Of a DNA stretch of 64,000 bases, positions 14,232-37,226 are shown piece after piece. The position numbers were made by a program, and so were the translations under genes. The DNA comes from Terriglobales bacterium (GTDB taxonomy: Bacteria; Acidobacteriota; Terriglobia; Terriglobales; Acidobacteriaceae): assembly GCA_035487355.1 (NCBI GenBank), contig DATHMF010000106.1, positions 37,173-101,172 on the forward strand, written 5' to 3'. Positions within the stretch are counted from its first letter, which is position 1, and every line of letters starts with the position of its first letter. The notes below the pieces were generated by a model that did no database searches, was not told the origin of the DNA, and was given only the letters and a program-made list of their open reading frames with translations.

Positions 14232-16754
14232 CTAACTTCTTCCCTGCGTCCGCAGCACAGGTTCGAGCTTAGCCAGCGCATCTTCGAGTCCTTGCTTCAG
14301 GGTGAGCACCGGGGCAAAGAGGTCGCCTACCCGCGAAAAACGCTCGATGGCGTTTCCGATATGGAATTGAGCGGGCGTGAGGTCTCTGGTGAGTTCCGTC
14401 CAGGCCAGCGGCGTGGCTACTGGAGCGCCGGGATAGGCGCGCAGCACATAGGGTGCCGCGATGTTCTTCCACGATGAGATCTGAAGATAGTCAAAGTACA
14501 CCTTGCCTCTCTCGCGCTTGGAGACCGTCCTTGGCGTGGTGAACAGGTCTGTCCTCTCATGCGCCACCAGGCGGGCGAGGATCTCGGCGAAGGTCCGCAC
14601 CTGGTCGTAGGTATAGCGCGGCTCAAGCGGGACGTAGATGTGCAGACCGTCTCCGCCGGTGGTCTTGGGGAAACCTTGCAGGCCAAAAATATCGAGCTTC
14701 TGCCGTACCAGGAGCGCGGCTTCAACGATGCGGTCGAAGCCGCAATGGACGGGGTCAAGATCAATCAGCATGAAATCGGGGTTGTCGAGTGAAGTAATCC
14801 GGCTCATGAATGGGTTCTGGTCGATGCAGCCCAGATTGGCGAGGTAGAGCAGGCTTCGCCGGTCGTTGGCGACTACATAGTTTATGGGGTCAGAATCAGG
14901 CTCTGACGATATGGGCACGGTCAGCAGCCAGGAAGGAAAGCTGGGGGGAGCGTCTTTCTGGAAGAAATATTTTCCCTCGATCCCATTGGGATAGCGCTTC
15001 AATGAGAGCGCCCGGTCGTGCAGATGCGGAAGAATAAGGTCTGCGACGGCGTCGTAGTAATTAATCACGTCGCGCTTGGTGTATCCCTCTTTGGGATAGA
15101 AGACTTTGTTCAGGTTGGTGAACTTGAGGCTCTTGCCTTCGATGTTAAGCATGACTTCGGCGACCTTGGGCGGCAAGAGCCTGCGCTGCACTGGAGCTGT
15201 AACGGAGTCGTCACCAGCAATGGCTTGGGGTTCCTGCTCGCGAACGCAGTCGCGAGGATCAATATCGTTGCGCAGGCCGACAAAAACCGGCGCGCGCAGC
15301 CGGCCGTCGTTGGTCCATGAGCCGAAGCGCACGGCGCAGACCAGTTCGGGCGAGACCCACGTGGTTTCGCCGATGATCTTCGGTTCTTCCCCAAATGGGC
15401 ATGATTTGATGATGAGCGGCTGCAGCAGCTCATAGGTCTGCTTGAGAAGCTGCTGGTCAAACCCGGAGCCGGCATTGCCCACGTAAACCAGCTTGTTTTT
15501 GTCATAGACTCCGAGCGCGAGCGAGCCAAAGTACTCGCGCTCTCCGCTGGTCATGCCGCAGATGACAAAATCCTGTTGGGTGACGAGTTTGATTTTGAGC
15601 CAGGTGTTGCTGCGTTTGGATTCATAGCGGCTGGCGGCGTGCTTGGCGACAATACCTTCCAGCTCATGCTCCCGGGCGAATTGCAACAGAGGTTTGCCGT
15701 TGCCGGCATAGTGCTCGGAGTAGCGCACGGTCGCGTTGGGACGAATGATGGTCTGCAGGATGCGCTTGCGTTCGGCGAGCGGCGAGTTGCGCAGGTCGTA
15801 TCCGTTGAAATAGAGCAGGTCGAAGACAAAGTAATTGACCGGCCGGCTCTTGGCCAGTTGAGCGACCGCGCTGGCGACCGAGCCGATGCGCGGCTGCAGC
15901 AGGGCAAAGCTGGGATGCCCCTGGCTATCGAGCGCGACGACTTCGCCATCGAGAATCGCGGTCTGGGCGGCAACGTGCTTCTGCATTCCCGCGAGTTCAG
16001 GATATTGCCTTTCGATGCTGGTACTTTTTCGCGAGGTCATTCGAACGGCGTCAGGGGTGAGAAAAGCTACGGCGCGGACCCCATCCCACTTAAGCTCAAA
16101 AAGCCAGTCTGGCCCCTGCGGCAAATGGGTCTCTGGGGTAGCCAGCATAGGAATAATTTCATCCGGCATTTCGGAGCTCGCCGCTCCGGGGATCGCCGCC
16201 GGGTCTATGGTTGCGGCTACCACGCTGCTGATGTCGTCTTCGGCGTTCCATCCGGGTTTGGCGGCAAAGTCTTTTTTCTTGAGCAGCAGCCATTCGTTGC
16301 CCTTGCCCCGGTTTTTCATGCGGACAAGCCCAAACAAGCCCATAAGCTTGTGGCCGTGGAGCTGGAACTTAAGGTCTCCGCGATCCATTTGCTGCTCGAA
16401 AGATTCGTCGCCGACCAGCTCGTAAGTCCCACAGTCCCAGACAGTTACGCTGCCCGCGCCATAGTTGCCCTCGGGGATTGTGCCCTCAAAGTTGCCGTAG
16501 TCTATGGGGTGGTCTTCCACCAGCACAGCCAGGCGCTTTTCACCGGGGTCGAGCGTAGGCCCTTTCGGCACCGCCCAGGACTTCAGCGCTCCACCGGCTT
16601 CGAGGCGCAAGTCATAGTGGAGCCGCCGGGCGCTGTGGCGCTGAATAAAGAACCGCGCCCCCTGGGATGCGGCTGGTTTAGGCGGGGGCTCCGGGGTCTT
16701 TTCAAAGGACCGTTTTCGACGGTATTCATCTAGTGTCATGCGATTGAAATGCAT
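14232..16754 (-). CDS. ligD: Multidomain ATP-dependent DNA ligase LigD (phosphoesterase - ligase - polymerase/primase)
   Basis: The N-terminal PE domain is seen as FFIQRHSARRLHYDLRLE. Ligase motif I is ELKWDGVRA. The C-terminal LigD polymerase domain shows PNGIEGKYFFQKD, MLIDLDP and GGDGLHIYVPL. The alternative start MTLDEY lies at 16739. Confidence 0.92.
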   Translation of the reverse strand: MHFNRMTLDEYRRKRSFEKTPEPPPKPAASQGARFFIQRHSARRLHYDLRLEAGGALKSWAVPKGPTLDPGEKRLAVLVEDHPIDYGNFEGTIPEGNYGAGSVTVWDCGTYELVGDESFEQQMDRGDLKFQLHGHKLMGLFGLVRMKNRGKGNEWLLLKKKDFAAKPGWNAEDDISSVVAATIDPAAIPGAASSEMPDEIIPMLATPETHLPQGPDWLFELKWDGVRAVAFLTPDAVRMTSRKSTSIERQYPELAGMQKHVAAQTAILDGEVVALDSQGHPSFALLQPRIGSVASAVAQLAKSRPVNYFVFDLLYFNGYDLRNSPLAERKRILQTIIRPNATVRYSEHYAGNGKPLLQFAREHELEGIVAKHAASRYESKRSNTWLKIKLVTQQDFVICGMTSGEREYFGSLALGVYDKNKLVYVGNAGSGFDQQLLKQTYELLQPLIIKSCPFGEEPKIIGETTWVSPELVCAVRFGSWTNDGRLRAPVFVGLRNDIDPRDCVREQEPQAIAGDDSVTAPVQRRLLPPKVAEVMLNIEGKSLKFTNLNKVFYPKEGYTKRDVINYYDAVADLILPHLHDRALSLKRYPNGIEGKYFFQKDAPPSFPSWLLTVPISSEPDSDPINYVVANDRRSLLYLANLGCIDQNPFMSRITSLDNPDFMLIDLDPVHCGFDRIVEAALLVRQKLDIFGLQGFPKTTGGDGLHIYVPLEPRYTYDQVRTFAEILARLVAHERTDLFTTPRTVSKRERGKVYFDYLQISSWKNIAAPYVLRAYPGAPVATPLAWTELTRDLTPAQFHIGNAIERFSRVGDLFAPVLTLKQGLEDALAKLEPVLRTQGRS

Positions 16755-20163: not shown

Positions 20164-20256
20164 GGAGAGGTGGCCGAGTGGCTGAAGGCGGCGGTTTGCT
20201 AAACCGTTATACGGTCAAAAGCTGTATCGGGGGTTCGAATCCCCCCCTCTCCGCCA
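20164..20256 (+). tRNA. tRNA-Ser, anticodon GCU
   Basis: The acceptor stem pairs GGAGAGG with CCTCTCC. The anticodon loop is TTGCTAA. There is a long variable arm (TATACGGTCAAAAGCTGTATC), a T-arm GGGGGTTCGAATCCCCC, a discriminator G and an encoded CCA. Confidence 0.93.
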
Positions 20257-32235: not shown

Positions 32236-33249
32236 ATGAAATCCATCATCGCAATCCTTCTCTTTCCTGCCATTGCCTGCGCGCAGTCCGTAACCGGCGA
32301 GCCCCGGGTGGTGCGTTACCAGCTCAAACCCAGCGAGCTTAAATATACCTATGCGGCGTCGTATGCTCCAGTCGCGCGGCTGAAATCCGGCGACATTCTG
32401 GAAACTAATACCGTGGATTGCTTCGGCAATGCTATCCAGAAGCCGGGAGACACGTTGAGCATGGCTAAGGGAGATAATCCGCTCACCGGTCCTTTTTTTA
32501 TTGAGGGCGCAGAGCCGGGAGACACTCTGGCCATCAAGATCCTCTCTCTTGAAGTGGACGGCAATCAGGGAGTCGGCGCGCTGGCGCCTGGCTTTGGCGC
32601 CATCAACTCCACCAACTACACGCCCATGCTGAATCCTCCGATCAAAGAAAAGATCTGGTTCTATCCCATCGACCACGCCGGCAACACCGCAACCTTTCAG
32701 GCGCTGGATTCCAAGTACACGGTGAAGATTCCGCTGCATCCTTTCTTCGGCTGCATTGGCGTGGCTCCTGCGGGAGGCGAAGCCCGCAGCTCCGTGGTTC
32801 CCGAAGCTTTTGGCGGCAACATGGATTCCCCCGAAGCCAGCGTGGGCAACACCGTCTACTTTCCTGTGAACGTCTCCGGAGCAATGTTGTTTCTGGGCGA
32901 CGGTCATGCCGCCATGGGCGACGGCGAGGTCGCGGGCACGGCCATTGAAGTGCCGCTGCGCTCGCGCGTGCAGGTGCGCGTGATCAAAGGCCAGACTATC
33001 AATTGGCCGCGCTTTGAGAATGACGACTACATCATGACCGTCGGTGCCTACCGTCCGCTGGACGATGCTTTGCGTATCGCTTTTACCGAGCTGGTCGGTT
33101 GGATCCACAAAGACTACGGGCTCTCTGAGATGGATGCTTACGAGCTGCTGTCAAAAGTTGCCGAGATCCACCTGAACGAGATGGTTGATCCCAACTACGT
33201 TGTCGTGGCCAAAATCAATAAGAAGTTTTTGCCAAATCCGGCGAAGTAA
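32236..33249 (+). CDS. Secreted acetamidase/formamidase-family protein (FmdA_AmdA), paralog 1
   Basis: Signal peptide MKSIIAILLFPAIACAQS. Family segments are NPLTGPFFIEGAEPGDTLAIKI, HPFFGCIGVAP, GGNMD and LFLGDGHAAMGDGEV. Confidence 0.85.
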   Translation: MKSIIAILLFPAIACAQSVTGEPRVVRYQLKPSELKYTYAASYAPVARLKSGDILETNTVDCFGNAIQKPGDTLSMAKGDNPLTGPFFIEGAEPGDTLAIKILSLEVDGNQGVGALAPGFGAINSTNYTPMLNPPIKEKIWFYPIDHAGNTATFQALDSKYTVKIPLHPFFGCIGVAPAGGEARSSVVPEAFGGNMDSPEASVGNTVYFPVNVSGAMLFLGDGHAAMGDGEVAGTAIEVPLRSRVQVRVIKGQTINWPRFENDDYIMTVGAYRPLDDALRIAFTELVGWIHKDYGLSEMDAYELLSKVAEIHLNEMVDPNYVVVAKINKKFLPNPAK

Positions 33250-33332: not shown

Positions 33333-34388
33333 ATGCGTCAAACTATCCTTCTCGCTTTTCTGCTGGCATCTTCGGTTTTCTTGTTTGCGCAGTCGCAACC
33401 GCCGGCATCTTCTTCCAGCACTCCTTCCGGTACTCCGCAAACCTTCAAGCTGTCAGCCACTCCCAAAACTGTCGCCTGGGGATACTACGACGCTGCGGCC
33501 CCGCCGGTGCTGCATATCCACTCGGGCGACACCGTGGTGTTTGACACACTCCTCACCAACAGCCCAACCGGGCTGGAGCGGGCAGGAGTGCCCCCAGAAC
33601 AAGTACAGCAGAACCTGCGCGATATTTATAAAGAGGTCACCAACAAAGGACCGGGCGGACACATTCTCAACGGTCCGGTTTACGTTGAAGAAGCCGAACC
33701 GGGCGATACCCTGGAGGTACGCATCCAGAAGATCGAGTTGGCCATTCCATATGCCTACAACGGATTCGGCCCTAATCGCGGATTTCTGCCGGAAGATTTT
33801 CCCTATCGCAAGATAAAGATCATTCCTTTGGACAAGGAGCGCATGGTAGCGACATTCGCTCCGGGAATCGAGATCCCGCTGCATCCCTTTTTCGGCAGCA
33901 TGGGCGTGGCTCCGCCGGAATCCTTCGGACGCATTGACAGCGCTCCGCCGGGAGTCCACGCCGGCAACATGGACAACAAAGAACTGGTGGCAGGGACCAC
34001 GCTTTACCTCCCTGTGCACGCGCGCGGGGCGCTGTTTGAAGTAGGCGATGGCCACGCGGGACAGGGCAACGGCGAAGTGGATATCACAGCCATGGAGACG
34101 TCGCTCGTAGGCACGCTGCAGTTCATCGTGCACAAGGGGACCAACCAGAAATATCCGCGCGCAGAAACGCCTACGCATTACATCAGCATGGGGTTCCACC
34201 AGGAGCTATACGAAGCTACCCGCATCGCCGTGCGCGAGATGATTGATTTTCTGATGGCTGAAAAACATCTCAGTCACGATGATGCTTACATGCTGACCAG
34301 TGTGGCAGGTGACGTTGACATCACCGAATTGGTTGATGGCAACAAGGGTGTACACGTCATGATGCCCAAAGCGCTCTTTACAAAATAG
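33333..34388 (+). CDS. Secreted acetamidase/formamidase-family protein, paralog 2
   Basis: Signal peptide MRQTILLAFLLASSVFLFAQS. Family segments are HILNGPVYVEEAEPGDTLEVRI, HPFFGSMGVAP, AGNMD and LFEVGDGHAGQGNGEV. Confidence 0.85.
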   Translation: MRQTILLAFLLASSVFLFAQSQPPASSSSTPSGTPQTFKLSATPKTVAWGYYDAAAPPVLHIHSGDTVVFDTLLTNSPTGLERAGVPPEQVQQNLRDIYKEVTNKGPGGHILNGPVYVEEAEPGDTLEVRIQKIELAIPYAYNGFGPNRGFLPEDFPYRKIKIIPLDKERMVATFAPGIEIPLHPFFGSMGVAPPESFGRIDSAPPGVHAGNMDNKELVAGTTLYLPVHARGALFEVGDGHAGQGNGEVDITAMETSLVGTLQFIVHKGTNQKYPRAETPTHYISMGFHQELYEATRIAVREMIDFLMAEKHLSHDDAYMLTSVAGDVDITELVDGNKGVHVMMPKALFTK

Positions 34389-36326: not shown

Positions 36327-36521
36327 ATTTTCTCCAGGTGGTCTGTCTGACTCACACGTTCCAGAGTCTCCAAGTATGTGAAACCAGTAATGCTACTCGT
36401 TTGGCGGAATGCAGTAAAATCTGCCGGCGCGGCGCGGGGCGACCAGCGAAGAAAATTTCTACCTGAATCTTTTGTTAGGAGTAGGCTACAGGTGCGATAA
36501 TTTCGCAAGAGGATACGATCC

Positions 36522-37082
36522 ATGAATCGAAGAACTGCTCTCCTCGCACTGTGGATGCTGGTGCTCGCCGCTTTGCCAGTCGGCCGGCTGTCGGCACAAG
36601 CTGACAAGAAAGACGTTCCGGAACCGTCAATCAAGGTCGGGGATGAAGCTCCCGATTTTACCTTGGTCGATCAGAACGGTAACAAGATCACGCTCAGCAG
36701 CTTTCGCGGCAAGAAGAACGTTGCGCTCGCGTTTTACATCTTCGCCTTCACCGGTGGTTGAACCAAACAGATGCAGAACTTCCAGCAGAACCTCGAAAAG
36801 CTGGAAGCTGCAGACACCCAAGTCTTGGGTGTGAGCATGGATAGCCCTTTCAGCAATAAGGCGTGGGCAGACCAGATCAAAATAACTTTTCCGCTATTGA
36901 GTGATTGGGGAGGAGAAACCGTTCGCAAGTATGGTGTCTATAACCCCAAATACAAAGCTGCGCGCCGCGTAAATTACGTGATTGACAAACAAGGCAAAGT
37001 CATTGAAATGCAAGTGGACAGCGAGGCCATTGATCCCACGAAGATCGTGACCCTCTGTGAGCGCAGAACGCATAAGCAATAA
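36522..37082 (+). CDS. Secreted PrxQ/BCP-type peroxiredoxin with in-frame UGA (36759-36761) at the peroxidatic Cys position; probable selenoprotein
   Basis: Track ORFs 36522..36761 and 36771..37082 are in the same frame and separated only by TGA ACC AAA CAG. The joined sequence ...VALAFYIFAFTGG[U]TKQMQNF...VLGVSMDSPFSNKAW...FPLLSDWGGE...YGV matches FYP..FT.GCT.E peroxiredoxin architecture. A signal peptide is present at the N-terminus. Confidence 0.75.
36773..36811 (+). promoter_or_regulatory. Candidate bacterial SECIS element
   Basis: The hairpin is GCAG-AA-CTTCCAGC [13-nt loop AGAACCTCGAAAA] GCTGGAAG-CTGC. That gives 12 paired positions with an AA bulge, starting 12 nt after the UGA. Confidence 0.55.
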
Positions 37083-37132: not shown

Positions 37133-37226
37133 GCGGAGTCCTTAGAAACGGGTGAGCGAAAAGTGAGCGCCGTACAGCGCGAACTTTTCGCGAGGGCGCA
37201 GCGGCTTGCCGCGGAGCCCTTAGAAA
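37133..37226 (+). repeat. Interspersed repeat of about 95 nt, copy A (GCGGAGYCCTYAGA..AAACGGGTGAG..AAAAGTGAGCGCCGT..GCGCGAACTTTTCGCGAGGGC..GCGGAGCCCT)
   Basis: It is near-identical in blocks to 39213-39317 in the same orientation. It contains the internal imperfect palindrome GCGAAAAGTGAGCGC / GCGCGAACTTTTCGC. Its 3' end supplies the TAA stop (37220-37222, minus strand) of the adjacent gene. Confidence 0.8.

Follow-up and report, generated by a model that had tools for sequence, protein, structure and literature searches.

A putative exported selenocysteine-containing peroxiredoxin of soil Terriglobia and the conserved hairpins downstream of its in-frame UGA

A 64,000-nucleotide stretch of forward-strand DNA from a Terriglobales bacterium of the Acidobacteriaceae (assembly GCA_035487355.1, contig DATHMF010000106.1), hereafter referred to as the window, was found to contain a peroxiredoxin gene (positions 36522-37082) that is interrupted by an in-frame TGA at the codon for its peroxidatic residue. 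Judging from its sequence and from that of its relatives, this locus very probably constitutes one functional gene that encodes an exported AhpE/BCP-like peroxiredoxin with selenocysteine (Sec) as the peroxidatic residue. The use of Sec instead of Cys in peroxiredoxins is already known in principle, PrxU, with Sec in place of the peroxidatic Cys, having been known since 2001, and the finding is in this sense incremental and not surprising. What is new is an AhpE/BCP-like clade that carries a signal peptide, lacks a proline in the active-site motif, is close to fixation for Sec among soil Terriglobia and is systematically mis-annotated; two alternative architectures of the selenocysteine insertion sequence (SECIS) and an extra conserved hairpin are also new.

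A single reading frame with one conserved in-frame UGA

Direct reading of the + strand returned a single frame of 186 codons that runs from an ATG at 36522 to a TAA at 37080-37082, and within which the TGA at 36759-36761 (codon 80) is the only in-frame stop. The two listed open reading frames (ORFs), 36522..36761 (79 amino acids) and 36771..37082 (103 amino acids), share this frame, as had been claimed in a preliminary description of the locus made from the same sequence. That description had also placed the TGA in a peroxiredoxin active-site context, FYIFAFTGG-[TGA]-TKQM, and rightly so: the codon lies within FYIFAFTGG-[TGA]-TKQMQ, where T-G-G-U corresponds to the T-x-x-C position of peroxiredoxins. 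The 186-residue read-through product matches the Pfam AhpC-TSA domain (PF00578) over its full length (residues 39-162, profile positions 1-123 of 124, E-value 3e-38, 131 bits against a cut-off of 26). Since this match runs across the TGA, neither ORF represents a complete domain and the two are halves of a single one, which bears out the earlier statement that each half on its own is an incomplete fold.

TGA occupies codon 80 at 52 of 52 Terriglobia genome loci (62-90% identity) and at 76 of 76 readable metagenome loci (43-74% identity), and in total it was found at 135 of 135 readable related loci, which span amino-acid identities of 43-90%. In other homologues the same column is occupied by Cys, with real Cys codons (TGC or TGT) in loci L068, L069 and L070 and in copy 1 of L071, and with Cys in proteins P0002, P0005, P0008, P0010, P0040 and P0079. 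The preliminary description had proposed that orthologues be compared for UGA conservation and Cys alternation, both of which were thus observed, and for additional disabling mutations, none of which were encountered: a codon alignment of 53 unique genes shows exactly one in-frame stop in 53 of 53 and no frameshifts. The part of this alignment that precedes the TGA has a mean amino-acid identity of 0.81 and the part that follows it one of 0.80, and on both sides variable sites are most numerous at the third codon position, followed by the first and then the second (downstream, 65, 53 and 99 at codon positions 1, 2 and 3, respectively). The gene is otherwise intact. Genome-wide reassignment of UGA was rejected, as TGA is the ordinary stop of 4 of the 21 confident (Pfam-supported) genes of the window, and there is therefore no reassignment of the genetic code.

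Every public entry of the family among the 120 best database matches, as well as in the assemblies checked, is either fragmented or mistranslated. The gene is divided by public callers into fragments of 79 and 103 amino acids, also on the 140-kb ENA metagenome contig to which the window corresponds, and independent assemblies contain the identical sequence; a protein search returned hundreds of 103-residue entries, 76-99% identical, that begin at the same Met right after the stop. The few ‘full-length’ public entries show W or C at the critical column; the DNA behind the W entries is TGA, translated with another code, and that behind the C entries is a true TGC or TGT. JGI gene calls on short contigs place such a false Trp at the active site (P0001, P0003, P0007, P0009, P0017 and P0020; loci L065-L067), and some of these proteins are named ‘mycoredoxin-dependent peroxiredoxin’. 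Recognition of the Sec codon restores the full enzyme from hundreds of database entries that consist of 79- or 103-residue fragments or carry a spurious catalytic Trp.

More than one copy of the gene was found in some cases. At L071 (104-1009), a Cys copy (TGC) directly precedes a Sec copy (TGA) with an intact downstream hairpin, L128 holds two TGA copies 670 nt apart (sites 463 and 1133), and two copies occur in several metagenome-assembled genomes (L004/L005 and L031/L032). Two copies of ~70% identity, L006 and L018, come from contigs that binning assigned to Candidatus Udaeobacter (Verrucomicrobiota) and to Candidatus Limnocylindria (Chloroflexota), respectively, which reflects either horizontal transfer or acidobacterial contigs placed in the wrong bins.

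Hairpins downstream of the UGA

The bulged hairpin to which the preliminary description had pointed, GCAG-AA-CTTCCAGC / GCTGGAAG-CTGC at 36773-36811 (hairpin 1), begins at the 12th nucleotide after the TGA and was confirmed as the minimum-free-energy structure. Its lower stem (36772/3-36776 with 36808-36811/2) and its upper stem of 8 bp (36779-36786 with 36800-36807) flank an AA bulge at 36777-36778, and the apical loop comprises 13 nt (36787-36799); the distance from the UGA is 11 nt to the stem and 25 nt to the loop. A 76-nt segment folds with -25.9 kcal/mol, compared with -16.3 +/- 3.2 kcal/mol for dinucleotide shuffles (z = -2.98, 2/200). Since the Phe-Gln codons TTCCAG are complementary to the Leu-Glu codons CTGGAA, tests that control for the protein were used. 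Synonymous recoding, in which the protein was kept and the codon usage of the family applied, gave -8.6 +/- 3.1 kcal/mol against -18.2 kcal/mol observed, and the native energy was reached in 0.2% of 2000 trials (p = 0.002), indicating that hairpin 1 is more than a product of chance or a by-product of the amino-acid sequence. The ten stem codons have a normalised synonymous-codon entropy of 0.23, compared with 0.74 for the remaining 85 conserved codons (Mann-Whitney p = 1.6e-6). Leu of the 3' arm, for instance, is encoded by CTG in 53 of 53 genes, as compared to five codons in use for the loop Leu.

Covariation was assessed in a set of 104 unique sequences, in which 92% of hairpin 1 cells are paired, eight pairs show double (compensatory) changes and the covariation score exceeds that of 500 out of 500 column shuffles; when the 3' partner is displaced by 1-3 nt, pairing falls to 26-45%. 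The upper stem, which is also returned by RNAalifold, is ~98% paired and includes compensatory changes from UA to CG and from CG to GC. Pairing of the lower stem is confined to about two thirds of the sequences, with alternative GGC/GCC pairings in others. Selection on hairpin 1 at the RNA level is thus supported by synonymous-site suppression, covariation and recoding. When nt 12-76 were folded, the Sec forms gave -27.9 +/- 2.5 kcal/mol (n = 104), compared with -12.3, -16.7 and -17.4 kcal/mol for three of four close Cys forms.

Directly after hairpin 1, a second conserved hairpin (hairpin 2) was identified, which RNAalifold also predicts, in which 99.6% of cells are paired in the 104-sequence set and the loop of which lies ~60 nt from the UGA. 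In the same set, its pair 63/67 occurs as GC (68), AU (29) and GU (5). Facing Gln and Leu codons in this hairpin covary perfectly at synonymous sites among the 53 genes (CAG with CTG in 28, CAA with TTG in 25, and 0 mixed), and G-U intermediates of this pairing occur in the larger set. We know of no accessory hairpin of this kind described for bacterial SECIS elements.

A diverged subfamily B (L127-L151, with ...LAFTGG-U-TKELKAYQADIAKFE) retains the UGA, lacks hairpin 2 and possesses a different hairpin at the same offset, GGCGUAUCA-GGC-UGAUAUCGCC, which starts 14 nt after the UGA, shows compensatory changes in five of nine pairs and has a score that 0 of 500 shuffles reach. The apical loops differ, being 13 nt long and starting with AGAA in subfamily A, to which the window gene belongs, and consisting of a 3-nt GGC in subfamily B. 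Such maintenance of two different hairpins at one offset from a common UGA is what a SECIS element would be expected to show. The E. coli fdhF-type SECIS likewise consists of a hairpin within the coding sequence ~11 nt after the UGA, with an unpaired bulge and an apical loop, although its sequence and loop are different and subfamily A has a covarying second hairpin. The two diverged SECIS solutions for one codon, together with hairpin 2, offer material for defining SelB recognition in Acidobacteria.

Peroxiredoxin class and relation to known selenoproteins

Sequence comparison and structural modelling both suggest that the window protein is an AhpE/BCP-like peroxiredoxin. The closest solved sequences are an archaeal peroxiredoxin (2ywn/4g2e) and AhpE of Mycobacterium tuberculosis (E-values of ~1e-26 to 1e-28). 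An AlphaFold2 (AF2) model of P0005, the closest true Cys homologue with 60% identity to the window protein, has a mean confidence (pLDDT) of 87.8 and superimposes on AhpE and Sulfolobus Bcp1 with TM scores of 0.86-0.91 and a root-mean-square deviation (rmsd) of 1.6-2.0 A. The best NCBIfam match is to Bcp/thioredoxin-dependent thiol peroxidase (NF006960), at 85.5 bits and thus below the cut-off of 140. PrxU, which the preliminary description had named as a known example of a Sec-containing peroxiredoxin, is not a close relative: the PrxU equivalog NF040737 scores 73 bits against a cut-off of 270, and the protein is AhpE/BCP-like instead.

The active-site residues of the family are well conserved. 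Position -3 relative to Sec is T in 128 and S in 2 of 130 unique family members, and R148 and R149, which are invariant in an 18-sequence alignment, correspond to the ...RRxxFvID... segment in the sequences of AhpE and the archaeal peroxiredoxin. At position -7, where the canonical PxxxTxxC/U motif has Pro, the 130 unique Sec forms have I (74), V (55) or L (1) and never Pro (the window codon 73 is ATC, 36738-36740), and Pro was found in one Cys homologue, P0040; its absence is a departure in motif and not in fold. A Cys is present within the last 14 residues of 129 of the 130 members, 109 of which have it at +99 from Sec, and in the AF2 model of P0005 this C-terminal Cys is located in the last helix. 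A hydrophobic, signal-peptide-like N-terminal extension was observed in 122 of the 123 members with a complete 5' end. The N-terminus of the window protein, MNRRTALLALWMLVLAALPVGRLSAQA|DKK, shows the n-h-c/AxA arrangement of a secretory (Sec-type) signal peptide, as judged by inspection and a hydrophobicity heuristic, in agreement with the signal peptide predicted in the preliminary description; in the P0005 model, an N-terminal helix and a low-confidence linker precede the domain.

Peroxiredoxins with a TxxU motif have been accepted as a family of prokaryotic selenoproteins (PMC13188914; PMC1794560, Table 1). A Bcp-type member from Geobacter (WP_011365628.1; Sec ‘Prx’, PF00578, TxxU) resembles the window protein in its AhpC/TSA fold, in a Sec that lies within T-x-x-U-T-K-E/Q and aligns with U80, in a stem-loop after the UGA and in the existence of Cys-containing homologues, yet identity between the two is only 35% over 104 residues. 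Unlike this ‘Prx’ family of the selenoprotein catalogues, the family described here has a signal peptide, a C-terminal Cys and I, V or L for Pro, and it derives from aerobic soil Terriglobia, whereas the catalogued Sec peroxiredoxins derive from anaerobic Deltaproteobacteria or Clostridia. PrxU of Eubacterium (Peptoclostridium) acidaminophilum is likewise a Sec peroxiredoxin, the Sec of which aligns with U80 when a PrxU-type sequence (PMC12013277, Data S1) is used; at 34% identity this sequence is not the nearest relative, and PrxU itself is a cytoplasmic, typical-2-Cys/AhpC-like protein of ~230 amino acids with an FTFVU motif. The best structural match is AhpE of M. tuberculosis (Rv2238c; TM 0.86-0.89, rmsd 1.6-2.0 A, 33% identity, E-value ~2e-26), which has the unusual ...LAFTG-x-C motif in common with the window family. 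AhpE is a cytosolic, mycoredoxin/mycothiol-dependent 1-Cys enzyme that retains the Pro (FFPLAFTGIC) and has no resolving Cys, whereas the window protein has UGA/Sec, a signal peptide with predicted export, no Pro and a conserved C-terminal Cys. Acidobacteria are not known to make mycothiol. A search of the literature for this peroxiredoxin family in Acidobacteria or soil returned nothing.

Proposed mechanism, alternative readings and genomic setting

According to the proposed mechanism, the UGA at 36759-36761 would not be read as a stop, and the hairpin at 36772-36812 would act as a bacterial SECIS element that presumably recruits SelB.GTP.Sec-tRNA(Sec) to the ribosome, such that Sec is inserted. 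The N-terminal signal peptide would then direct export of the resulting 186-residue precursor. Once the enzyme is mature, the U80 selenolate, placed by Thr77 and Arg148, would attack peroxide to yield a selenenic acid, which would probably be resolved by Cys179, forming a selenenylsulfide, or by an external thiol reductant. Hairpin 2 may have an accessory role.

Several observations weigh against this interpretation. No selA, selB, selD or tRNA-Sec was found in the window (the 30 largest ORFs compared with Pfam, together with ARAGORN and Rfam scans), the sole tRNA gene of which is a tRNA-Ser(GCT) at 20164-20256 and not tRNA-Sec; neither were these genes found in the fetched flanks, ARAGORN returning no tRNA-Sec on 154 loci. 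A search with Solibacter SelA (PMC1794560, supplement) gave at least 120 matches, of which the 120 listed are all Bryobacteraceae-like and at least 72% identical to the Solibacter protein, and none of these was tied to a genome carrying the peroxiredoxin; the few taxon-labelled matches belong to Bryobacteraceae and Acidobacteriia. As regards hairpin 1, part of it is favoured by the protein itself through the FQ/LE complementarity, a G in its loop is not universal (CAA variants being present), its covariation is largely clade-structured and thus reflects few independent events, and no Rfam family matches it (permissive scan of 36700-36900, none at E <= 10). Furthermore, one Cys form, L068, keeps the full structure (-28.3 kcal/mol), which would fit a recent change from Sec to Cys. 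The idea that the hairpin would be conserved only in UGA-containing copies therefore stands as a trend, in that three of four close Cys forms have a much weaker structure; its stricter form, absence from Cys forms, was discarded as only partly true.

Published support for the Sec machinery exists at the family and lineage level only. Acidobacteria were credited with three selenoprotein families in 2006 (PMC1794560, Table 2), and the Acidobacteriaceae isolate Occallatibacter riparius appears in a list of Sec users, its selenoproteins being AhpD-like, deiodinase-like and FdhA proteins (PMC12013277, Table 2, Data S1); a peroxiredoxin of the window type is not in its selenoprotein list (PMC12013277). 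The selenoprotein list of Solibacter could be resolved only to two FdhA.

That Sec machinery was found neither in the window nor in the fetched flanks also speaks for an alternative in which the UGA is decoded, but as Cys, Ser or Trp, by a suppressor-type tRNA or by hairpin-stimulated near-cognate read-through. Candidate tRNAs would be the acidobacterial allo-tRNAs, which have nonsense-suppressor potential and come for the most part from contigs of Acidobacteria, and selC*-like tRNA-Cys(UCA), since selC* can decode a selenoprotein UGA as Cys (PMC5389517). This alternative is nevertheless assigned only a small probability: a free suppressor tRNA needs no position-specific covarying hairpin at SECIS distance, and two subfamilies keep different ones; general suppression would be harmful where TGA is a normal stop, as it is in the window; and a peroxiredoxin with Ser or Trp as its peroxidatic residue would be inactive. 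In addition, selC* has not been reported from Acidobacteria (PMC5389517), and Sec users are found among the Acidobacteriaceae (PMC12013277).

Two further alternatives, both of which would dispense with decoding of the UGA, are very improbable. The division of the gene into 79- and 103-residue fragments by public callers would be consistent with a pseudogene, i.e., a nonsense mutation in an ordinary Cys peroxiredoxin, or with a sequencing error. However, the comparative data refute this, as 135 independent loci with identities as low as 43% have the TGA, with no other stops or frameshifts and with equal purifying selection on both sides, and independent assemblies agree in sequence; the earlier judgement that a selenoprotein is likelier than a pseudogene is supported by UGA conservation, coding constraint and hairpin selection alike. 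The other alternative is a split gene, in which translation would stop at the UGA and start anew from ATG 36771, the two polypeptides assembling into a peroxiredoxin-like fold. The position of this ATG, 9 nt after the TGA and preceded at 13 nt by a weak GGTGG, is in line with such an arrangement, but the assembled protein would be without any residue at the peroxidatic position. Moreover, uninterrupted Cys forms also conserve the Met, which belongs to helix alpha2, and in subfamily B the corresponding codon is Leu (CTN or TTG), such that most members have no start codon there and still conserve the UGA. The split gene was rejected because of the lost peroxidatic residue and of subfamily B.

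Decoding of the UGA as Sec, as proposed above, is part of a wider claim, namely that a large, uncatalogued clade of exported selenoperoxidases exists, with near-fixed Sec in aerobic soil Terriglobia, a Pro-less site and a two-hairpin signal in which hairpin 2 serves as a SECIS accessory. Taken as a whole, this claim appears possible, albeit rather doubtful. Sec use is linked mainly to anaerobes; if true, the claim would mean that one of the most abundant bacterial groups in soil has a selenium-dependent peroxide defence in the periplasm, and would tie the availability of selenium in soil to periplasmic oxidative-stress defence.

The features of the locus are compiled in the table. The promoter-like match was obtained in a consensus scan in which 9 of 12 positions agree and one match was found against 0.5 expected in shuffles, which makes it weak.

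Table. Positions of the peroxiredoxin gene and of its sequence and RNA features within the window
Feature	Position	Strand	Basis
Match to a sigma-70-like promoter (TTGTTA, 18-nt spacer, TG-GATAAT)	36472..36501	+	consensus scan; weak evidence
Putative Shine-Dalgarno-like GAGGA, 8 nt before ATG	36509..36513	+	direct reading
Predicted selenoprotein gene: signal peptide, then AhpE/BCP-like peroxiredoxin domain, UGA as Sec at codon 80	36522..37082	+	single-TGA frame, Pfam match, 53/53 orthologues with one stop
Predicted Sec-type signal peptide MNRRTALLALWMLVLAALPVGRLSAQA, putative cleavage after AQA	36522..36602	+	inspection
Thr77 codon of the TxxU active-site motif	36750..36752	+	T/S conservation at -3
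UGA, predicted selenocysteine codon (residue 80, peroxidatic position)	36759..36761	+	TGA conservation, Cys homologues, alignment with known Sec columns
SECIS-like hairpin 1	36772..36812	+	minimum free energy, covariation, RNAalifold, synonymous-site suppression, recoding
Second conserved hairpin (hairpin 2), ACACCCAA-GUC-UUGGGUGU	36814..36832	+	pairing, covariation, RNAalifold
Arg148-Arg149 codons, conserved catalytic Arg of peroxiredoxins	36963..36968	+	alignment
Cys179 codon (TGT), candidate resolving residue	37056..37058	+	family conservation

The peroxiredoxin gene is flanked by a divergent M61 peptidase gene and by a convergent CarboxypepD_reg gene. A conserved redox partner or operon was not found, the neighbours varying among lineages (leuCD, acyl-CoA synthetase, deformylase and M61 peptidase). 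Between the convergent peroxiredoxin and CarboxypepD_reg genes lies an inverted repeat, GCGAAAAGT...ACTTTTCGC, at 37159-37194, within which a terminator-like site was called by the scan on the - strand only (37180-37167). Elsewhere in the window, two adjacent paralogous acetamidase/formamidase (FmdA_AmdA) genes are located on the + strand at 32200-33249 and 33333-34388, and a full LigD, i.e., a non-homologous end-joining ligase with 3'-phosphoesterase, ATP-dependent ligase and primase-polymerase domains, is encoded on the - strand at 14232-16754.

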